DNA of 61,610 bases, the filler included, from Candidatus Tectimicrobiota bacterium (GTDB taxonomy: Bacteria; JACPSX01), in the NCBI GenBank assembly GCA_016193065.1. It is 5 parts of 5 records of this genome, joined end to end, with 100 filler letters (N's around TTAATTAATTAA, not from the genome) between each part and the next. Parts side by side here need not be neighbours in the genome. Positions count along the whole stretch, not along the records: positions 1 to 22,276 come from JACPSX010000050.1; 4 more parts are not named here. One strand, written 5' to 3'. Below the pieces are notes generated by a model, which was not told the origin of the DNA, ran no database searches, and worked only from the letters and a program-made list of their open reading frames with translations. Positions within the stretch are counted from its first letter, which is position 1; the number at the start of each line of letters is the position of its first letter. This document shows, in pieces, positions 757-53,263 of this stretch. A program made the position numbers and the translations under genes.

Positions 757-1944
757 TTAGATCCTTACATCCAGGAGCCCCTGTCCCCCTAGCCAGTGCA
801 AAGGGCTAACTTCTTTGCTGGCTTCTTCCACCTTCCGGGGGCTGACCCTGCACAGGAATTCCTCCAACCGGAAACCAAAGGCGGCCAGGCGCTCGCGCAG
901 CGCCCCGCGACCCCGGCGCAGAGCGGCAGCAGCTTCTTCGGATTCCACCGCCAGCGAAAGGCTTACTCGGCGATCGGAAATGAGACCGTCGACGCGCAGG
1001 CTGCCCAGAGAGCTTAGTGTCAGGTATAAGAGGAGTGTGACGGGTCTGGGATCTGCCTGCCGTCCCTTCCGGTGCGGGACCTCTAGGCGCAAATAGGCCG
1101 GCGCCAGTCCTCCGGGGGAAGCGAAGGCCAGAGGAAAAGTAAAAGAGTCAGTCCCGTTCTCCCGGGCTGCATTGGAAACCTGGTAGAGTTCGATGAGATT
1201 CAGGAGTTGGCGCGCCGCGTGACCTGCAGGGTGAAATTCCTTCCCGCCCGTGAGGGTCTCGCCCCACGGACCGCCTGCCTCCGGGTACCCGCGAAGTGGG
1301 TACCCGGCTTCGCGGGTATCCGCGAAGTGGGTGGCCGTGTATCTCAGCAGAGCACCCTTCAGGTCCTGCGCGCCGGTCTGAGGCCTCAGGGTTCCATCCC
1401 GGGCCGCCTTGAAAATCGTGGATTCATAAAATAGTCCGGAAGAGGCCAGGGCCAACCGCAAGGGCATGGAGCCGGGCTCTTTTAGAGGGAGGCTGGTCAA
1501 AAGATCCTGCAAGTTTCGGACGGCGGGCGCCGGGTACCCGCCTTGCGGGTGCCCTTTTGCCGTGGAGAGGTTCCGCAGCAAGGCTTCCCAAAGGGAGGAG
1601 TATTCGTTCCAGCGCCGGATACCATCCCGGAGGCCGGCGAACTTCTCCCATTGTGTGCTTGCTGATCCTTCCGGAAAAAGCGAGAAGACAATCTGGGGGG
1701 AGAGCGCTTCCACTTTCAGGGAAATCTCGGCGCCGACAGGAAGGGGGGATGTGCTTTGCGCCTGTACAATTTCCCCCTGGATCTGCACCAGAAATTGTTG
1801 AGGAGAAAAGTTGGACAGGACTTCCCCGCGGACGAGCTGGCCGGGGGCCAGCAGGGGGAGGAGGCTTTGCGAGACGCCTGAGACCGGGATCAGGGAAGGT
1901 CGATCCGTGAACAGTTGGCTCAACAGAGATTCAAGGTAGGCCAT
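757..1944 (-). CDS. FliK-like hook-length-control domain protein
   Basis: C-terminal LLLYLTLSSLGSLRVDGLISDRRVSLSL...LRERLAAFGF and terminal LLDVRI; adjacent to the FlhB-C homolog. Confidence 0.7.
   Translation of the reverse strand: MAYLESLLSQLFTDRPSLIPVSGVSQSLLPLLAPGQLVRGEVLSNFSPQQFLVQIQGEIVQAQSTSPLPVGAEISLKVEALSPQIVFSLFPEGSASTQWEKFAGLRDGIRRWNEYSSLWEALLRNLSTAKGHPQGGYPAPAVRNLQDLLTSLPLKEPGSMPLRLALASSGLFYESTIFKAARDGTLRPQTGAQDLKGALLRYTATHFADTREAGYPLRGYPEAGGPWGETLTGGKEFHPAGHAARQLLNLIELYQVSNAARENGTDSFTFPLAFASPGGLAPAYLRLEVPHRKGRQADPRPVTLLLYLTLSSLGSLRVDGLISDRRVSLSLAVESEEAAAALRRGRGALRERLAAFGFRLEEFLCRVSPRKVEEASKEVSPLHWLGGQGLLDVRI
1282..1551. repeat. 21-nt palindromic element copies in the FliK-like gene
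   Basis: Exact copy at 1531-1551 (HPQGGYP) and a tandem triple variant at 1282-1333. Confidence 0.88.
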
Positions 1945-5163: not shown

Positions 5164-7250
5164 GATTGTAAGCTCACAGTTCCCAGGGTGACGATGCGTA
5201 CCGCGGGCGAAACCTCATTGGGGGAGAGCACTGCCATATTAGGGAAGAACCTCTCCGTGAGCCGGCGCAAATGGCGGCGGATCGTGGGGGAAGCCAGGAC
5301 CACGGGCTGATAATCCGTGGCCGCGAGCCGCTCCGCGGCGCTTTTGAGCCGGCTCAGCAGGCGCTCGGCATGAGCCGGTTCCAGGGCCAGGAACGAACCC
5401 TGGTCGGTGTGCCTTACGGCTTTGCTGAGGACTTCCTCGGTTTCCGGGACCAGGGAAATGATCGGCAGGGTACCCTCCCGGGTCTGATACTGCTTGGTGA
5501 TCGGACGCGCCAGAGCCTGGCGCACGTATTCCGTCAACAGGTCGGTGTCTTTGATCGTGGTGCCGTAATCGGCCAGGGTCTCCAGGATCGTCAGCAGGTC
5601 CCGAATCGAAACTCTCTCCCGCAGGAGGTTTTGCAGAACCTTCTGCACCTTGCCCAGGGGCAGGATGTTGGGGATCAGTTCTTCGACCAGTTTGGGGTGA
5701 TTTTGTTTGAAGGTATCCAGGAGATTTTGGACTTCCTGTCGCCCCAGCAGCTCGTGGGCGTGGGTCTTAACGATCTCGCTCAGGTGAGTGGCAACCACGG
5801 TGGAGAGGTCGACCACGGTGTAGCCGGCAAACTGGGCCTTTTCCCTCTCCCGCTCGGGAACCCAGAGGGCCGGCAGGCCGAAGGAAGGCTCCCGGGTCGG
5901 AATCCCCTGGATTTTTTCTTCCACATGACCGGGGGCCATGCACAGCACATGGTCCATCCGCAGTTCTCCCCGGGCGACCTCCACCCCTTTAATCAGCACG
6001 GAGTACTCTTCCGGCCGGAGCTGGAGGTTGTCCCGGATGTGCAAGGGGGGAATGATGATCCCCCACTCCAGGGCGAACTGCCGGCGAATTGACTTGATTC
6101 GTTCCAGAAGCTCGCCGCCCTGCTCCATGTCGACCAGCGGGATGAGCCCGTAGCCGACCTCCATTTCGATGAGATCCAGGGAGAGAAGAGATTCGACCCG
6201 CTCCGGTGCGGGCTGACGGGACTCGGCCTCTTCCGCTTCCTGGCGTTCCCGGGTGCGGACTTTTTCCCGTTCCAGGCTCAAGTAGCCGACGGCTCCGGTG
6301 AACAGCGCCAGGATGAAGAACGGGATGTGGGGAAGACCCGGGATCAGCCCGAAGAACAGGATGATCATGGCCGCAATCCCGATGGCGCGGGGATGGTAGA
6401 GGGCCTGTTCGGTGATTTCCTTTCCCAGGTTGGCTTCGGCGGCTGATCGGGAGACCATGATTCCGGCCGCCGTGGCAATGATCAGGGCCGGAATGCTGGA
6501 CACCAGCCCGTCGCCGATGGTCAGCAGGGTGTAAGTCTTCAAGGCATTGAGGAAGGACATCTGGGCCTGCCACACCCCGATGGCCAGCCCTCCCAGGATG
6601 TTGATCAGGGTGATCAGGATGGTGGCCTTGGCATCGTTCTTGGTGAACCGGCTGGCTCCGTCCATGGCGCCGTAAAAATCGGCTTCGCGCTCGATATTGG
6701 CGCGCCGGGCCCGGGCCTCCTTCTCGTTGATGAGACCCGCGTTCAGATCGGCGTCGATGCTCATCTGCTTGCCGGGAATTGCATCGAGCGTGAAGCGGGC
6801 TCCCACCTCGGCAATGCGCACCGAGCCGTTCGTGATCACCATGAAGTTGATGATGATCAAGACCAGGAAGACGACTGTCCCGACGATGTAGTTTCCGCCC
6901 ACGACGAAGTTGCCGAAGGACTGGATCACCTTCCCTGCGGCTTCCGTCCCCTCGCTTCCATGCAGGAGGATCAAGCGGGTGGAAGCCACGTTCAGGGCCA
7001 GGCGGTACAGCGTGGTCACCAGCAGGAGAGACGGAAAGACGGAGAACTCCAGAGGACGCTTTACGTACATGCTGATCAGGAGAATGATGATCGACAAAGT
7101 GATGTTCAAGGATAGGAGCACGTCCAGGAGCGGGGGCGGCATGGGGATGATCATGACCATGAGGATCCCCACGACTCCGACGGCCAGAAATGCATCGTTT
7201 TGTCGGGTGAACGCATCAAACGCGCGCAGAACGGCGGATTTATCGGCCAT
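5160..7250 (-). CDS. flhA: Flagellar export gate protein FlhA
   Basis: RIAEVGARFTLDAIPGKQMSIDADLNAG, FYGAMDGA, TIGDGLV; 696 aa, full length. Confidence 0.98.
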   Translation of the reverse strand: MADKSAVLRAFDAFTRQNDAFLAVGVVGILMVMIIPMPPPLLDVLLSLNITLSIIILLISMYVKRPLEFSVFPSLLLVTTLYRLALNVASTRLILLHGSEGTEAAGKVIQSFGNFVVGGNYIVGTVVFLVLIIINFMVITNGSVRIAEVGARFTLDAIPGKQMSIDADLNAGLINEKEARARRANIEREADFYGAMDGASRFTKNDAKATILITLINILGGLAIGVWQAQMSFLNALKTYTLLTIGDGLVSSIPALIIATAAGIMVSRSAAEANLGKEITEQALYHPRAIGIAAMIILFFGLIPGLPHIPFFILALFTGAVGYLSLEREKVRTRERQEAEEAESRQPAPERVESLLSLDLIEMEVGYGLIPLVDMEQGGELLERIKSIRRQFALEWGIIIPPLHIRDNLQLRPEEYSVLIKGVEVARGELRMDHVLCMAPGHVEEKIQGIPTREPSFGLPALWVPEREREKAQFAGYTVVDLSTVVATHLSEIVKTHAHELLGRQEVQNLLDTFKQNHPKLVEELIPNILPLGKVQKVLQNLLRERVSIRDLLTILETLADYGTTIKDTDLLTEYVRQALARPITKQYQTREGTLPIISLVPETEEVLSKAVRHTDQGSFLALEPAHAERLLSRLKSAAERLAATDYQPVVLASPTIRRHLRRLTERFFPNMAVLSPNEVSPAVRIVTLGTVSLQS

Positions 7251-9117: not shown

Positions 9118-9393
9118 TCACCGGATGTAGCTCGGGATGTTCATAAAAACGTTCTCCGTGTAGCGCAGGATGAGCTGCAGCATCCAGGGAAAAGAGAGCA
9201 CCAGGGCCGCCATCACGGCCAGGATCTTCGGAATGAAGGTCAGGGTCATTTCCTGAATCGAGGTCACTGCCTGGAAGATGCTGATCAGGACTCCAACGAC
9301 CAGACCGGCCAGGAGCATGGGGGCTGCCATCAGCAGGGTGATCTCCATTGCTTGTTTGCCAAATCCGATGATGAATTCCGGCGTCATGACCAT
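9118..9393 (-). CDS. fliQ: Flagellar export protein FliQ
   Basis: GLVVGVLISIFQAVTSIQEMTLTFIPKI. Confidence 0.96.
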   Translation of the reverse strand: MVMTPEFIIGFGKQAMEITLLMAAPMLLAGLVVGVLISIFQAVTSIQEMTLTFIPKILAVMAALVLSFPWMLQLILRYTENVFMNIPSYIR

Positions 9394-9398
9394 CCCCC

Positions 9399-10163
9399 CT
9401 AGGCGAAGCTCTTCACCAACGAGCCCACCACCAAGTACCAGCCGTCCACCAGGACGAAAAGCAGCAGCTTAAACGGGAGCGAGATGACGATCGGGGGCAG
9501 CATCAACATCCCCATGGACATCAACACGGAGGCGATCACCATGTCCAGGATGAGGAAGGGAACATAGATGAGAAAGCCGATTTCGAAGGAGGTCCTGAGC
9601 TCGCTGATGGCGAAAGCCGGGATCAGCACATGGGTGGGGACATCCTCCGCGTTGCGGGGACGCTCGATTTTGGCCATTTCCACGAAAAGCGAGAGGTCCT
9701 TCTCCCGGGTCTGAGCCAACATGAAGGAGCGCAGGGGAACTATCGCCCTGCGGAAGGCTTCCCCCTGCCCGATCTGTTGGGCCATGTAGGGCTGCAGGGC
9801 GTTGCGGTTCATCGCTTGCCAAACGGGAGACATGATAAAGACCGTGAGGAACAGGGACAGAGCGATGAGCACCTGGTTCGGGGGGGTGGTTTGGGTGCCG
9901 ATGGCGCGGCGGACGAAGGATAGGACCACGACGACCCGAGTAAAGGAAGTCACCATCATCAGCAAGGCCGGAGCCGTGGCCAGTACCGTGAGCAGCAGGA
10001 GGATCTGGATCCCGCTCACGAGCTGGGAGGGGTCTCCCGAGGATCCCAGGCTGATGGTGAGATTGGGAATCTTCACGGTTTCCTGGGCGGCTGCCGCAGG
10101 CTCCGTGGAGAAGAGAAAGGTTCCCGTCAAAACCGGAATAGTTAAGGTTCGGTCCATGATCAT
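9399..10163 (-). CDS. fliP: Flagellar export protein FliP
   Basis: TSFTRVVVVLS, PPNQVL, PAFAISEL, SLPFKLLLFVLVDGW; ATG at 10163 overlaps the fliO stop (ATGA). Confidence 0.96.
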   Translation of the reverse strand: MIMDRTLTIPVLTGTFLFSTEPAAAAQETVKIPNLTISLGSSGDPSQLVSGIQILLLLTVLATAPALLMMVTSFTRVVVVLSFVRRAIGTQTTPPNQVLIALSLFLTVFIMSPVWQAMNRNALQPYMAQQIGQGEAFRRAIVPLRSFMLAQTREKDLSLFVEMAKIERPRNAEDVPTHVLIPAFAISELRTSFEIGFLIYVPFLILDMVIASVLMSMGMLMLPPIVISLPFKLLLFVLVDGWYLVVGSLVKSFA

Positions 10164-11467
10164 CGATTCGGGATCGGCTTGAGCCGGCTCACGCGGTCCT
10201 GAACTGCCTGGGCCATACGGGCCAGGGAGTTTTCGTCCACGGCATCGGATCGGGATGACGATTCCCGGGTACCCGCTTGGCGGGTGTGATGAGGATCGGC
10301 CAGGGGACTGCCCTCGGCGCCGAGCGGGCGCTCCGGAAGACGGGCCAGCATGGCAATCTGGTTCTGCGAGACCCCGAGAACCAGGCGTTCCCCGGCGACC
10401 TCGACCAGCGAAAGGCTCTTCTTGGGCCCCAGGTAGCTGGAAGAAAGAACCCGGATCAGCCGTTCCTTTCCCTTCCACGCTCCTCTCTTGTGCAGCAATT
10501 GGCGCATGGCCAGCGCGACAATCGCAAGAATTCCCAGAACGGCTCCGAGGGATGCCGCCATCCGTAGGGCGACGCGGTTCAGACTGCCGTCATCTGCCGG
10601 GTACCCGGCTTCCGGGTGCGCCTGCTGGCGACCCTGCGGAGACACCAGCGGGTACCCGCCTTGCGGGTGCACGGGTTTCTCGGGCGGCGCGGGGCTTTGG
10701 GCAACCGGGTACCCGCCTGGCGGGTGACCGCCTTGCGGGTGCAGCAAAGGCGACTCGTGACCGGGCAGTTCACGGCCGCCTGCCATCAGGGGCCCTTCGA
10801 CTTTGCTCAGGACAGGCCCTTCGACCGGGTACCCGCTTTGCGGGTGTACCTGCGAAGCGGGTGCGGCTTCCGGGTGCAGGACAGGCCCTTCGACCGGGTA
10901 CCCGCCTTGCGGGTGCAGGACAGGCCTGGGGATCGGCTGGGCGGCGAGCACCGACCGGATCGTGGCGTCTTCGGCTACCGCAGGGTCAGGGGCCTCGGCA
11001 GTGCCGGCCGGCCGGCCTTTTCCTCTTTCGCCCGGGGAGCTTAAGCCGGAGGGCTGACGGCGAAAACGAAACATCAGCTCTTCTCCTTGCCGGGAGATTT
11101 CCAGGCCGTTTGGGGGAACCGCCTCCTCTGCCGGAAGAAGGAAGCGTAACTCTACCGCCGTGGGGGTAATCTGCCTAGCTTCCAGCCGGTCCACCTGCCC
11201 GTCTCCGAAGTAAAAAACCCTTCTTTCCGGGAACAGGGTCATCTGGGGGACAACCAGCGTGACCGAGCGGTCCTTAAACACGGCCTCCGCCGCGGATAGG
11301 GAGACTGCCGGGGAAAGATCACGGAAGCGGGCCATGATCCGCAACTCATCCGTATTGGAGAATGCTTTAATTCCCTCCAGGAAGCCCAGGGAGGGCTGTT
11401 TCGCAGCGAGCCTTGGAGGAAACAGTAGAAGTGCCACTATCCCCACGATCCACAGCCTGCGCATCAT
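10160..11467 (-). CDS. fliO: FliO with long N-terminal extension and repeat-laden Pro-rich linker
   Basis: Signal peptide, then TM helix plus IRVLSSSYLGPKKSLSLVEVAGERLVLGVS (FliO domain); between fliN and fliP. Confidence 0.85.
   Translation of the reverse strand: MMRRLWIVGIVALLLFPPRLAAKQPSLGFLEGIKAFSNTDELRIMARFRDLSPAVSLSAAEAVFKDRSVTLVVPQMTLFPERRVFYFGDGQVDRLEARQITPTAVELRFLLPAEEAVPPNGLEISRQGEELMFRFRRQPSGLSSPGERGKGRPAGTAEAPDPAVAEDATIRSVLAAQPIPRPVLHPQGGYPVEGPVLHPEAAPASQVHPQSGYPVEGPVLSKVEGPLMAGGRELPGHESPLLHPQGGHPPGGYPVAQSPAPPEKPVHPQGGYPLVSPQGRQQAHPEAGYPADDGSLNRVALRMAASLGAVLGILAIVALAMRQLLHKRGAWKGKERLIRVLSSSYLGPKKSLSLVEVAGERLVLGVSQNQIAMLARLPERPLGAEGSPLADPHHTRQAGTRESSSRSDAVDENSLARMAQAVQDRVSRLKPIPNR
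10266..10915. repeat. Cluster of 21-nt palindromic elements CGGGTACCCG-N5-CGGGTG inside fliO
   Basis: Copies at 10266, 10598, 10649, 10706 (with a 15-nt tandem extension to 10741), 10826 and 10895, plus a partial copy at about 10858. Confidence 0.92.
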
Positions 11468-11570: not shown

Positions 11571-11978
11571 CTAACGGAGGTGTTCGATTCGCTCCATGGG
11601 ACTAATCACATCGGTCAGCCGAATGCCGAACTTCTCGTTCACCACGACAACCTCCCCCCGGGCCACCAGCTTTTCGTTGACCAGCAACTCGAGAGGCTCC
11701 CCGACCAGCTTGGTGAGCTCGATGACGGAGCCCTGCCCCAAAGACAGGAGATCATGGATCCGCATCTTTGTGCGCCCCAGTTCCACGGTGACCTGTAAAG
11801 GGATGTCCAGAATAAAATCCAGATTGAGGGATGAAACGCTCTGGGCGGGCTCCTCCTGGGGAGCGCCGGCTTCCTCGGGTGGTCTGCTGGCTGCCAGATC
11901 GTCCTGGACGTCGTCCCAGGTCAAATCACCCTGTTCCGTGGACCCTTCGGGAAGGGCGCCGGGATCGGTTTCAGGCAT
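11571..11978 (-). CDS. fliN: Flagellar motor switch protein FliN
   Basis: [20 protein letters not shown]...[20 protein letters not shown]. Confidence 0.97.
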
Positions 11979-16974: not shown

Positions 16975-18618
16975 TTACGCGAAAAGGTCCACGGTCCCGC
17001 GCTGCGAGTAAGCATCCTTGTGCCGAGATCTCAGATCCTCTGCTTCGATCCGGGGCATTTCACTGCCGTCTTCTCCGAGGCCCGCGGCGCTTTCCTGGTC
17101 GTGAGGGGCGGGCATCCCGTTGCGAGAGTGCCGCCACGGGTTTTCCCCCACCTGGACAAAGAGACGGTCTACTCTTAAGCCCTGTTCTTCCAGGGCTCCC
17201 CGCAGGCGGTCCATGTGGGTCTCAATGACTTCACGAACCGCGGCGGTCTCTGCGATGAACTTGGCCTGAATGCCGCGCTGGTCGCTGGTGATCTGCACGT
17301 GCAGTCGGCCCAGAGAATCGGGCTTGAGATCCAGCTCCATCCGCCCCTCACCCCGGCTCAAATGATAGGAGATGCGCTCCACAATCTGTCCCAACACCGG
17401 CGGGGCGGGAGTTTGGGGTCGCGCTGAGAGTTCCGGGGGATTGAAGGGCGGGTTCTGTAGCCGGTGGGGTGGCGTTTCTCCGAGGGGATTAGGCGTCTCC
17501 TGAAGCAAGGTAGTCGATGCCGGCGCCTGTACCCTTTCCGGTTCACGGTAAGACGTGCGCTGGGTTCCTTTCAGGGGATCTTCGATCAGGAGGGAGGTGG
17601 GACTTGGGCGAGATGGTTGATCTTCCGATTCCGACCAGGCTCCCTGCTCGAAAAGACCCGAGTAAGGCAGTTGCCTGGCGCCGCTCTGATTGTCCTGTCC
17701 TTCGAGACCTTTTATGGCAGGGGCCGGAGGTTCTCCCATGGACCGGCTCAGGGCCCGAGCTTCCTGCATCCATCCCGGCCGGGGGAGTCGTAGATCCTGC
17801 GCATTGGTTGCAGGAACCCGGCCAGAGCCAAGCAATGTCCCTGTTCCTTCAGGGTGGTCTTGGGGATCCTGTGCACCAGTTACAGCAACGGGCCACGGGG
17901 ATTCTGGGGACCCACTCATTGACTGTGGGCTTCCCGGGCTAGGAAGGGATGATGGATGGGTGCCCTGCTTTCCCTCCGGTGCCGGCAAGATGACCCCTTC
18001 GACATTTACGGCACGATGTCGCGCTCCTTCTGCCGATGGATCGCGACCGGCATCCGGAAAGAGGCGTTCAACGCCTTTGGTCAGTGCAACGAGCTTTTCC
18101 TCGGTCAACGCACCGGCGCCGGTCTGACTGTCCGCTTCCCCCGTGGTGAATAACGCCGCAATATCGGCGGCTCCCGAGTTTGCGGAACCTGGAGGCGGGA
18201 ACGACGGGAGTCCCATTTCCTTCCCGGCTTCCGGTCGGGAAGCGTCGGGCTCCAGAAGAATCACGGGTGTAGGCGTTCCGGTCGCAAGAGTCGGGATTGC
18301 ACACCCGCAAGGCGGGTACCCGATCGGGCCATCCGCCGGTGGGACTTGGGTATCGGGAAGGTCCGGAAAACTTTCTCCTACCCACCACAGCCACAACCCG
18401 GTGGGCGCCGGCGTAGCGTTTCCCCCGCTGTCGTCAACGGGGATCGTTTGAGTCGACTGTGCGTCTGCAGAGGGGAGAATCGGCCCTGCTGCCAGACCGA
18501 GAAGATCCTCAAAATCCGTGGAGGTTCCTTCTCCGGAAGAGCCAGGCGATGTCTTTGTCGGCTGTAACGGCGCTGCAGCACAGGTGCCCGGCAAGGGTAA
18601 GAGATTTGTTGCGCTCAC
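16975..18618 (-). CDS. fliK: Flagellar hook-length control protein FliK
   Basis: Long Pro/Ser-rich region, then MELDLKPDSLGRLHVQI...LRGALEEQGLRVD; directly upstream of flgD/flgE; likely GTG start at 18618 (GGAG RBS). Confidence 0.88.
   Translation of the reverse strand: MSATNLLPLPGTCAAAPLQPTKTSPGSSGEGTSTDFEDLLGLAAGPILPSADAQSTQTIPVDDSGGNATPAPTGLWLWWVGESFPDLPDTQVPPADGPIGYPPCGCAIPTLATGTPTPVILLEPDASRPEAGKEMGLPSFPPPGSANSGAADIAALFTTGEADSQTGAGALTEEKLVALTKGVERLFPDAGRDPSAEGARHRAVNVEGVILPAPEGKQGTHPSSLPSPGSPQSMSGSPESPWPVAVTGAQDPQDHPEGTGTLLGSGRVPATNAQDLRLPRPGWMQEARALSRSMGEPPAPAIKGLEGQDNQSGARQLPYSGLFEQGAWSESEDQPSRPSPTSLLIEDPLKGTQRTSYREPERVQAPASTTLLQETPNPLGETPPHRLQNPPFNPPELSARPQTPAPPVLGQIVERISYHLSRGEGRMELDLKPDSLGRLHVQITSDQRGIQAKFIAETAAVREVIETHMDRLRGALEEQGLRVDRLFVQVGENPWRHSRNGMPAPHDQESAAGLGEDGSEMPRIEAEDLRSRHKDAYSQRGTVDLFA
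18302..18322. repeat. 21-nt palindromic element, opposite orientation, inside fliK
   Basis: cacccgcaaggcgggtacccg; read as GYPPCG in FliK. Confidence 0.9.
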
Positions 18619-19085: not shown

Positions 19086-19835
19086 CTATCGGCCCGGCGG
19101 TTTGGCCAATTGTTCGCTGAGGCGGGCGGCTTTCTCGGGATTCATGAAGGCCAGGATCCGGGAAGCTTGTCGGTCCTTCATGCGCTGAAAGACTTTCAAG
19201 GTGGTCTCTTCCTGCATGCGCTCCAGGAGGGGAGCCGCTTCTTCGGGCCTCATGCCGCTGTACAGCTTGGCCAGCCGGCTGATCTTTTCTTCCTCCATTT
19301 GGCCGATCATGCCGAGACGCTCCTGGATCCGCTTTTCGGTCTGCAGGATCTCGGCCAGCTTCTTCTCCACTTCTTGCTTAAGGCTTTGGAGGCGCTCCTC
19401 GTAACGCTTCAGGGCTTCTTCGCGGCGGTCCAGATCTTCCTTGCGTTTCTCCAGGGATTGCAGGATCTGAAGATCCTTCAGGGAAAGGGGAGCACCTTGC
19501 GCGGAGGCGGAGCGAGCCCCTTCCGTGGAGTCGGCCGCAAATCCCAGCAAAGGAACAACCAGGATCCAGCCCAGACACAGGATCACCCCCGCCCCACGAC
19601 GCAGGTAGTCCCCGCAAAAGTTAGCCGTAATCCGAAATTCGAACGTCTTGCCGGGGAGTGCGGGCCCGCGGGTGGTGCCGGGGATGCCTCCGGAGAGACG
19701 CGCGAAAGTGGGACCCTCGTCAGGGTGACGTAGCGCGGCTCGGAGGAGGCGCCCCGGCGACAGGACCTGCGGGCCGATGGCACGCTTAGAAGGCGACAGT
19801 TTTTTCGGATCAGGGTTAGCTCCGCCGTTGTTCAT
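19086..19835 (-). CDS. MotE/MgtE-N-like flagellar coiled-coil protein
   Basis: Coiled coil, then KISRLAKLYSGMRPEEAAPLLERM...ASRILAFMNPEKAARLS; ATG at 19835 with GGAGG RBS overlapping the end of fliJ (start uncertain). Confidence 0.8.
   Translation of the reverse strand: MNNGGANPDPKKLSPSKRAIGPQVLSPGRLLRAALRHPDEGPTFARLSGGIPGTTRGPALPGKTFEFRITANFCGDYLRRGAGVILCLGWILVVPLLGFAADSTEGARSASAQGAPLSLKDLQILQSLEKRKEDLDRREEALKRYEERLQSLKQEVEKKLAEILQTEKRIQERLGMIGQMEEEKISRLAKLYSGMRPEEAAPLLERMQEETTLKVFQRMKDRQASRILAFMNPEKAARLSEQLAKPPGR
19663..19785. repeat. ~120-nt stem-loop repeat, copy 1
   Basis: Aligns with 53126-53263; terminal inverted repeat ggcccgcggg...cctgcgggcc. Confidence 0.85.
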
Positions 19836-46499: not shown

Positions 46500-46676
46500 G
46501 ACCGTTCGCCTGGTTTTGACAAACTCTCCACAGGCTTCGACGCGCTTAGGATGAGCAGGAGAATTCCCTTCGCCCTTCGACAGGCTCAGGACGAGCGGCG
46601 GAGATGAGACCGACTCAACGCTCCCCTCACCTTTCTCCTCTCCCCCAAATCGGGGGAGAGGATAGGGAGAGGAGGA
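46500..46676. repeat. Cluster of REP-like palindromes
   Basis: cttcgacgcgcttaggatgagc, cccttcgacaggctcaggacgagcgg and cccctcacc...tcctctccccc-aaatc-gggggagagga... Confidence 0.7.
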
Positions 46677-53125: not shown

Positions 53126-53263
53126 GGCCCGGGGGTGGCGCCGGGGAAGCCTCCGCAGAGCCGCGCGAAAGTGGGATCCTCGTCAGGGTGACGGAGCGCG
53201 GATCGAGGAGGCGACCCGGGTACCCGCCTGGCGGGTGTCAGGACCCGCGGGCCAACGGCGCGC
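53126..53263. repeat. ~120-nt stem-loop repeat, copy 2, carrying a 21-nt element at 53217-53237
   Basis: Aligns to 19663-19785 apart from the extra cgggtacccgcctggcgggtg segment. Confidence 0.85.

Follow-up and report, generated by a model that had tools for sequence, protein, structure and literature searches.

We analysed a 61,610-nt stretch of DNA (hereafter the window; five parts of five records, joined end to end) from the Candidatus Tectimicrobiota bacterium assembly GCA_016193065.1, in which the flagellar gene fliO carries a block of nested short repeats. Our subject is a 21-nt sequence (the 21-mer) found in that block, its exchange for about six nucleotides of target DNA, and the repeats and genes that host it. 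The gene lies between fliN (11571–11978) on one side and fliP on the other, and its product is matched by the Pfam FliO family (amino acids (aa) 327–385; E 1.9e-12). Within it stands a head-to-tail triplet of a 24-nt unit derived from a repetitive extragenic palindromic (REP) sequence; the three units, U1, U2 and U3, hold 0, 3 and 1 copies of the 21-mer, respectively:

10160–11467, minus strand: fliO open reading frame (ORF), 435 aa, with N-terminal domain, repeat-built linker, transmembrane segment and FliO domain.
10793–10816, plus strand: host unit U1, empty; CCCTTCGAC (10793–10801), TTTGCT (10802–10807), CAGGACAGG (10808–10816); minus-strand reading PVLSKVEG.
10817–10885, plus strand: host unit U2, flanks CCCTTCGAC and CAGGACAGG around a 51-nt fill (10826–10876), nested at three levels.
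10886–10924, plus strand: host unit U3, filled; CCCTTCGAC (10886–10894), CGGGTACCCGCCTTGCGGGTG (10895–10915), CAGGACAGG (10916–10924); read as PVLHPQGGYPVEG.

The fill of U2 is composed of a 21-mer (10826–10846), TACCTGCGAAGCGGGTG (10847–10863) and CGGCTTCCGGGTG (10864–10876). U1 and U3 share 11 identical nucleotides on each side (GGCCCTTCGAC and CAGGACAGGCC), between which 6 nt in the one stand against 21 nt in the other (net +15), and no flank base is duplicated at their junctions. The initial annotation, which had seen in these two units an empty and a filled site side by side, described both correctly but overlooked U2 between them; its two translations also agree with the minus-strand frame, which across the block reads ...PRPVLHPQGGYPVEGPVLHPEAAPASQVHPQSGYPVEGPVLSKVEGPLMAGG.... 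What does not hold is the view of U1 and U3 as a before/after pair. The 27 nt over U1 (10790–10816) are identical to a copy in REP context on contig C98 (about 100–126), and the last 30 nt of the U2 fill agree at 29 of 30 positions with the 36-nt nested form of seven REP copies, the first 21 nt of the fill standing where that form has CGCGGG. With a 51-nt fill that corresponds to a REP form already built, the fliO units make no clean before/after pair: these alignments indicate that they are paralogs, each with its own history, rather than two states of a single site, and that at least U2 arrived pre-filled or went through the same steps again. A second locus with a fliO-like arrangement, an empty TCTGCT unit and then a filled unit, lies on contig C291 (9340–9520, the tandem at about 9374–9484). 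The ORF that contains this tandem is about 200 aa long, its family unknown, and both strands are open there.

The near-identity of U1 and U2 to REP copies, and the recurrence of an empty-plus-filled tandem on C291, favour an alternative that we consider unlikely: that the 21-mer is a mere module of one REP-like subfamily with no insertion of its own, that its two states differ by conversion or recombination between copies that share flanks, and that the fliO array is imported REP DNA, subsequently duplicated locally. The evidence that bears on it further comes from the host repeats and genes described below.

Elsewhere fliO carries five more 21-mer matches at four sites (10266, 10598, 10649 and 10706/10721):

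10706–10741, plus strand: 36-nt array of two overlapping units, period 15 (Tandem Repeats Finder), read as HPQGGHPPGGYP.
10649–10669, plus strand: 21-mer in the linker, read as HPQGGYP.
10598–10618, plus strand: 21-mer in the linker, GGCTTCC variant, read as HPEAGYP.
10266–10286, plus strand: 21-mer in the C-terminal tail, read as HTRQAGTR.

Among 5.8 billion protein clusters, a search that scored only the 8000 candidates with the most shared words gave three FliO homologs of 365–374 aa, all three with the one-ORF architecture; in a genome of the same genus (G001), FliO is a single 374-aa ORF. A 44-aa block (LHPQGGYPVEGPVL...SKVEGPL) and the remaining HPxGGYP units are absent from 3/3 homologs. 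The 132 nt of this block equal 3 × 24 nt (the host unit) plus 4 × 15 nt, and all inserts together account for 61 aa of extra linker, compared with G001, between the N-terminal domain and the membrane/FliO portion. On this comparison, the new FliO linker was built by two nested repeat families, as the initial annotation had proposed.

It is hardly credible that misassembly in a fragmented metagenome bin produced the repeat block. The genome (G000; 2.90 Mb) is in 294 contigs at 86% completeness, assemblers break in this region to leave many short contigs and loose ends at 10790–10930, and two joints of low support (10619→10894 and 10726→10817; both unused) have a shorter side of 22 nt within repeats. 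On the other hand, the U1–U2–U3 layout is reproduced without differences by contigs from four metagenome runs of one study, which may contain the source sample and are not independent support; U1–U2 is spanned by contigs of three further runs and U1–U3 by one, with 0 differences (X3 record 23, 10796–11150; X4 record 26, 10736–10881; X2 record 10, 10711–10820), the frame is open, and the flanking domains align with homologs. One contig each of runs X1, X2 and X3 carries a close strain variant (A>G at 10583, C>T at 10594, G>A at 10620 and C>A at 10649) in which 6 nt are missing at 10659, so that the 21-mer at 10649 becomes a 15-nt form (HPQGGYP to about HPGYP). Summed contig depth at 10786–10833 is up to 5916 in one groundwater run, with flanks at about 13–25; the 24-nt host unit is therefore common to far more abundant organisms in the same water.

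Exchange of target bases in host repeats

Genome-wide, copies of CTTCGAC...(C)AGGRC have gaps of 5 nt (24 copies), 6 nt (14), 21 nt (19) and 36 nt (8), and a single repeat-related copy, U2 of fliO, has a gap of 51 nt; the fills follow a 6+15n series with precise junctions and no target-site duplication. The hairpin-type REP loses 6 nt, since the C of CAGG is also missing from the filled copies. The family that hosts the fliO 21-mers has the typical features of REP-like hairpins, doublets included, and the copy to which the initial annotation had matched the fliO unit is indeed present in the window:

46573–46594, plus strand: REP-like host copy (CCCTTCGACAGGCTCAGGACGA), empty; CCCTTCGAC-AGGCT-CAGGACGA.

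Five host subfamilies hold filled as well as empty copies. The longer fills are made from the element itself: the 36-nt form is the 21-nt form whose GGTACC is exchanged for another 21-mer, and the 51-nt form is the 36-nt form whose CGCGGG is exchanged for a third. The element thereby enters its own GGTACC core or its terminal hexamer to give nested or tandem forms, and exchange of GGTACC for a 21-mer is seen in six flank-defined groups.

The same exchange emerges when the host is left undefined. We took the 14-nt flanks of every copy and sought the same flanks at 0–75 nt spacing, which gave 24 groups with both states. The short state is 5–8 nt of unrelated sequence in 24/24 groups and never 0 (six groups have 5 nt, 17 have 6 nt, and one has either 6 or 8 nt), a target-site duplication is found in 0/24, and the typical net change is +15 bp, or +16 at 5-nt sites. 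Examples, as empty versus filled copies, are TGGAGC/CGGAGC (16 vs 5), GAAAG (18 vs 2), CCGACG-like (13 vs 2) and ACGCC (10 vs 5); further short states are CCAGGG (9 copies) and GGTACC (16 copies). Filled sites have thus lost 5–6 bp (occasionally 7–8) of unrelated target and gained 21 bp. The suggestion that replacement of about 6 nt by 21 nt might be the rule is upheld by all 24 of these groups, by single-copy genes compared with G001, and by two other phyla.

The initial annotation also placed the exchange at hairpin loops, which is true of one host only. In DNA minimum-free-energy folds of ±35 nt, the replaced segment lies within a predicted hairpin loop in 21 of 25 empty REP copies, but in 0 of 45 empties from the six other host groups that gave copies (three more gave none); on these folds we reject the hairpin loop as a general target. 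As for sequence, the replaced hexamers share with the element a mean longest stretch of 3.42 nt, as compared with 2.83 nt for random genome k-mers, a lenient null for GC-rich repeats; 11 of 24 hexamers share at least 4 nt with the element, where 4.4 were expected (P about 0.001–0.002). Which hexamer was replaced showed no significant association with the fill's central variant (permutation P = 0.12).

The idea that the 21-mer is only a REP module draws further strength from the way in which the central variant goes with the host family: 18 of 18 REP-hosted 21-nt fills outside fliO are the GGYTTCC variant or a one-base derivative, and seven 36-nt fills have the same inner GCGAAGC copy. Given a separate central variant in every host, much of the copy number probably reflects the spread of pre-filled hosts. 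That idea is contradicted, however, by the fliO copies, which show other variants (GCCTTGC, GCTTTGC) at the same junction, by the identical exchange in 24 groups of unrelated flanks and in Saccharibacteria and Nitrospirota, and by the copies in RNase R, GlnE, Tmk, DUF2232, AtpG and Mfd, which are without REP flanks and so offer no homology for conversion.

Two larger repeats also have variable sites. The first is represented in the window:

19650–19790, plus strand: copy of a MITE-like repeat (MITE, miniature inverted-repeat transposable element) of roughly 140 nt, with variable sites GAAAG and CCGGCG at which other copies have 21-mers.

The ends of this repeat are inverted (GGCCCGCGGGT...ACCTGCGGGCC), and it occurs at least 18 times. 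The second, of roughly 450 nt, has about 15 copies genome-wide (C142:11230–11700; L009, about 130–600) that are intergenic and upstream of genes; it begins promoter-like (TTGCC...17 nt...ATAGCA), contains at least 4 sites in the short or the 21-mer-filled state, and may be a structured RNA gene family or a large MITE. Rfam gave no family at gathering score in the window, and at E<=1 only a chance-level Ysr35 fragment in the large host repeats.

Copies in housekeeping genes

A crude codon-usage gene caller placed 74 of 129 strict copies in intergenic DNA and 55 in predicted ORFs (35 well inside, 13 near 5' ends and 7 near 3' ends). The genic copies occur in both orientations and in all six frames (HPQGGYP, PGTRLAG, DTRKAGTR, RVPALRV, GYPPCG). 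A Pfam check of 12 genic cases confirmed internal copies in RNase R (RNB domain), ATP synthase gamma, Ham1, GlnE, TrmD, thymidylate kinase (Tmk), DUF2232 and an amidohydrolase, and copies adjoining domains in Mfd, DnaX, TamB and FliK; GlmU (C105) was left out owing to an apparent frameshift. Seven genes were compared with their G001 orthologs (79–92% aa identity), with the following differences in length relative to G001:

RNase R: single 21-mer, +5 aa; GCCCCG replaced by 21 nt.
GlnE-505: single 21-mer, +5 aa; AGTCCG replaced by 21 nt.
DUF2232: single 21-mer, +5 aa; CGGTGG replaced by 21 nt.
Tmk: single 21-mer, +5 aa.
AtpG: 36-nt form, +10 aa.
GlnE-775: 36-nt form, +10 aa.
Mfd-224: triple form, +15 aa.
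TrmD: 21-mer plus inverted 15-nt unit, +12 aa (exception).
Mfd-272: includes a 17-nt short form, +8 aa (exception).

All four single 21-mers in these housekeeping genes add five residues (4/4). The Ham1/RdgB ortholog was not found in G001 with this query, and that case is unscored. Open frames are kept by RNase R, AtpG, GlnE, Tmk, TrmD, DUF2232, Mfd and FliO, and we infer that the in-gene copies are translated. The 21-mer has a stop codon in none of its six frames; since it is stop-free and 15 is divisible by 3, copies persist in genes, adding five codons per step. Selection on frame is by itself insufficient to explain +15, because +21, +18 and +12 also keep the frame and non-coding hosts lose the same length of target. 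Homologous conversion fares poorly here because it cannot make the copies in unique genes. Of the mechanism that the initial annotation had put forward (replacement by conversion or template switch), the replacement is supported; conversion or template switch is not shown.

In the GlmU-like gene on C105 (4071–4330; L028, 1–260), the ATG start, with AAAGGAGG upstream, is followed by two host units and two 21-mer-type fills in frame (MSGPLRPGTRLPGAGQALRPGTRTQGGTRGAGQAL) and then by the conserved AIVLAAGQGTRM; host units and 21-mers are read on the opposite strand relative to fliO. The apparent frameshift near nt 250 splits the gene and is either an assembly error or the mark of a pseudogene.

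These gene copies bear on another proposal, namely that local replication slippage or hairpin-templated strand switching makes the units in place, the 15-nt period being that of a minisatellite. In its favour are the 15-nt-period arrays at 10706–10741 of the window and at C120:7137–7187, the 6+15n fill sizes, the strain variant with a 6-nt difference inside one copy, and the perfect tandem formed by the fliO host units. Yet slippage offers no way for one and the same 21-mer to reach unlinked sites and other phyla, and so it fares poorly with more than 100 unlinked sites in this genome and 21 assemblies of other phyla; the replaced AAGCTC, TGGAGC and GAAAG hold nothing that could template the fill, and the GGTACC-nested form is not expressible as pure 15-nt tandem addition. 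Judged as a minisatellite (head-to-tail, at one locus), the element does form 15-nt-period arrays, yet most copies are single and dispersed. We regard slippage as distinctly improbable. The array on C120 lies in a DUF3352-family gene (region 7085–7187); its three CGGGTGTCCGCCTTG units at 7137–7187 are read as DTRKADTRKADTRKAGTR, and two further copies are in other frames.

The hairpin and its occurrence in other phyla

The 21-mer has the form CGGGTACCCG-N5-CGGGTG, a 10-bp palindrome plus a hairpin (ACCCGC-CTT-GCGGGT; 6-bp stem, 3-nt loop) that stands behind a CGGGT arm. Allowing up to 3 mismatches, the window contains 10 matches, as against 0 in 100 shuffles, and the genome 119, of which 20 are exact. 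Those in the window outside fliO include:

1531–1551, plus strand: 21-mer in a FliK-like gene (757–1944, minus strand; Pfam Flg_hook, aa 296–367), giving HPQGGYP at aa 131.
18302–18322, minus strand: exact 21-mer, intergenic per crude gene calls.
53217–53237, plus strand: 21-mer with 1 mismatch, on a different contig of the window.

The pattern CGGGTACCCGNNNNNCGGGTG is found 99 times in G000, 8 times in G001 and 0 times in 29 other genomes, and its reversed control 0 times in both G000 and G001. These counts indicate that the copy number reflects a burst specific to this lineage. Besides the one same-genus genome, the 29 nearest genomes compared share only the domain with this bacterium, whose lineage is very sparsely sampled. 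Relatives of the 21-mer, both shorter and longer, measure 15, 17, 19, 22 and 23 nt, and hairpin cores number 131 with GGGTAC, beyond which, reverse-strand readings aside, there are only about 20 singletons.

The hairpin itself is kept by compensatory changes. In 153 copies picked solely by GGGTACCC plus the four outer pairs, pair 10–16 is GC in 103, AT in 25, GT in 14 and unpaired in 11, and pair 11–15 is CG in 98, GC in 29, TA in 7 and unpaired in 19. Such changes could equally be enlisted for selection on function, in which the motif is maintained not by mobility but as a protein-binding or terminator hairpin, or as the HPxGGYP peptide; so could the excess of GGGTACCC (259 observed vs 83 expected from base composition) and the exact conservation across phyla. 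Nevertheless we hold this explanation to be very improbable: reading in all six frames, in either orientation, speaks against peptide selection or a role at the RNA level, copies lie within conserved domains where orthologs have 2 aa, and a terminator would be harmful in the 55 of 129 strict copies that fall in predicted ORFs.

The exact 21-mer also recurs elsewhere, at 26 loci in 21 assemblies with six other phylum-level labels (Chloroflexota, Saccharibacteria, Nitrospirota-type, Nitrospinae, delta/Syntropho-type and Vulcanimicrobiota), against a computed chance expectation of about 0.3 (21 fixed bases, 596 Gb, both strands). The delta/Syntropho-type assemblies include that of an isolate, Syntrophorhabdus aromaticivorans UI; three of the other-phylum genomes have merely 2–4 pattern copies each. 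Two of these lineages exhibit the exchange. In a Saccharibacteria gene, two species have the 21-mer where five relatives have 6 nt (ACCCTT, AGCGTT, ACCTAA, GCCACC and ACCATT), a net +15 that turns KG into HPQGGYP. In a Nitrospirota host repeat present in three genomes, the empty form is GTGCGCAAAC-GTGACGC-TCGTTATTC in 5 copies, one of them with GTAACGC, and the filled form is GTGCGCAAAC-[21-mer]A-TCGTTATTC in 3 copies (7 vs 22 nt, again net +15). The rule is therefore a property of the element, not of this genome. The other-phylum copies (loci L044–L069) often lie within REP-like repeats of their own, for example ...GTACGCC[21-mer]GGGCTCCTCGC in delta/Syntropho-type genomes.

Mechanism and relation to known repeats

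Bearing in mind the loss of a short target segment, the gain of 21 bp and the absence of target duplication, we hypothesize, as the reading that we think somewhat probable, that the 21-mer is a very small non-autonomous mobile hairpin element that integrates by cut-and-replace. Integration would be enzyme-catalysed with a fixed 5–6-bp geometry: the target would be cut in a staggered fashion and the overhangs discarded instead of filled in. The catalyst might be a host enzyme or a RAYT-like single-strand DNA enzyme that recognises the hairpin, and after integration the filled copies would amplify or convert within each host repeat family.

G000 has an intact gene for a RAYT-like Y1 transposase (C67:394–717, minus strand; 215-aa open frame, HVHLI and YIEMNP motifs), whose G001 counterpart is a broken 25.9-bit match with an internal TGA (C132:4196–4390). 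The Y1 transposase is a weak candidate for the enzyme. Upstream of the G000 gene there is a cluster of GGAATTC/GGGATTCCC-type repeats (about 820–870).

We also considered two other sources of such a signature. A retron or reverse-transcriptase origin is rejected, the sole RVT_1 locus (C278) being without the GGGTACCC motif. A Tn916-like coupling-sequence model is rejected too: under it, half forms with the target hexamer retained at one junction should be numerous, and such forms are rare.

Several observations weigh against cut-and-replace integration. No enzyme is linked to the element: around the Y1_Tnp ORF (C67:1–2217) there is no GGGTACCC, CTTCGAC or CGAACGG motif, and a Saccharibacteria genome with 3 copies has no Y1_Tnp match. 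The metagenome contigs yielded no whole-copy presence/absence allele, only the 6-nt length variant. The net change is +16 in the 6 groups with 5-nt empties, fills of 17, 19, 20, 22 and 23 nt occur, TrmD and Mfd-272 depart from five-residue steps, and the copy at 10266 brings no net gain, G001 being 3 nt longer there; for all the gene comparisons, the G001 state is taken as ancestral by assumption. Moreover, the central variant differs by host family; independent insertions perhaps number 20–30 rather than about 100, amplification or conversion of host repeats may account for much of the spread, and the resemblance of the replaced hexamers to the element could also indicate a homology-guided process.

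A wider form of the cut-and-replace reading is possible, if rather doubtful: that the 21-mer is a pan-bacterial micro-transposon, and that a widespread or host-borne enzyme recognises the CGGGTACCCG hairpin module, removes exactly 5–6 bp and installs 21 bp. Were this so, five-codon increments could enter any gene of any phylum and stack upon themselves (21, 36, 51 nt); the signature seen in three lineages would be that of one conserved, undescribed recombination reaction, and few mobile DNAs of defined integration geometry would be smaller than this element.

The closest known class is that of the small dispersed repeats (SDRs), to which we liken the 21-mer by description. In the account of Elhai and colleagues from 2008, SDR1–SDR8 of Nostoc punctiforme and relatives are reportedly 21–27 nt long, share a hairpin with compensatory changes, sit in other repeats and mini-transposons, are nested in themselves, and have no enzyme known to move them. 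The 21-mer has in common with them its size, dispersal, compensatory hairpin, nesting in itself and in other repeats, and lack of a known enzyme. It differs in its host, a flagellated groundwater bacterium (fliO/P/N/M genes) of an isolated lineage that is not labelled cyanobacterial, and in being documented with a fixed 5–6-base target loss, a 6+15n series and many copies in housekeeping domains. Judging from record titles, none of the 26 other exact-21-mer loci has a cyanobacterial label. SDRs are described as short mobile elements restricted to Nostocaceae (PMC5861425), and they are also mentioned in the REP/REPIN paper (PMC3116915).

REP/REPIN elements are mobilised by RAYT (Y1) transposases (Bertels & Rainey 2011, PMC3116915); the REP palindrome has an end tag, GTAG or CGTC, and intragenic REPs are known (Di Nocera et al. 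2013, PMC3733652). Like them, the 21-mer is a short GC-rich imperfect palindrome in a genome with an intact Y1_Tnp gene; by the crude gene calls, 74 of its 129 strict copies are intergenic and 55 genic. Unlike them, it begins CGGGTA and ends CGGGTG with no GTAG/CGTC tag, is not found beside the Y1 gene, reaches only about half the length of a REP, and inserts into REPs, replacing target bases. It resembles MITEs in being non-autonomous, repeated and inverted in symmetry, and departs from them and from cut-and-paste elements in that 0/24 groups duplicate the target and 5–6 bp are lost; 21 bp is also far below MITE size. The Rickettsia palindromic elements of Ogata and colleagues (2000) are said to be about 100–150 bp long and confined to Rickettsia. 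Shared with these are the character of selfish palindromic DNA, in frame and, for the 21-mer, presumably translated in essential genes, and its tolerance in loops; the 21 bp, the nesting and the measured target loss set the 21-mer apart. A text search of a literature collection for the 21-mer and its GGCTTCC variant on either strand found neither, and a keyword search for in-frame dispersed hairpin repeats found organelle papers only. What is new here is the quantified replacement signature, the self-nesting series and the recurrence of an identical element across phyla.

Dispersed repeats of this very small size were first recognised in 2008, and to our knowledge nobody knows how they move. 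A reproducible signature (5–6 bp lost, 21 gained, no duplication, self-nesting, and one outcome across unrelated hosts, unique genes and three phyla) constrains the mechanism far beyond the mere presence of repeats and offers a simple read-out for an assay. The consequences extend to annotation, to the comparison of protein length among close relatives, and to the reasons why such genome assemblies fragment. For the organism itself, the linkers and surface loops of FliO, FliK, RNase R, ATP synthase gamma, GlnE and Mfd can grow, in quanta of five residues, from selfish DNA.

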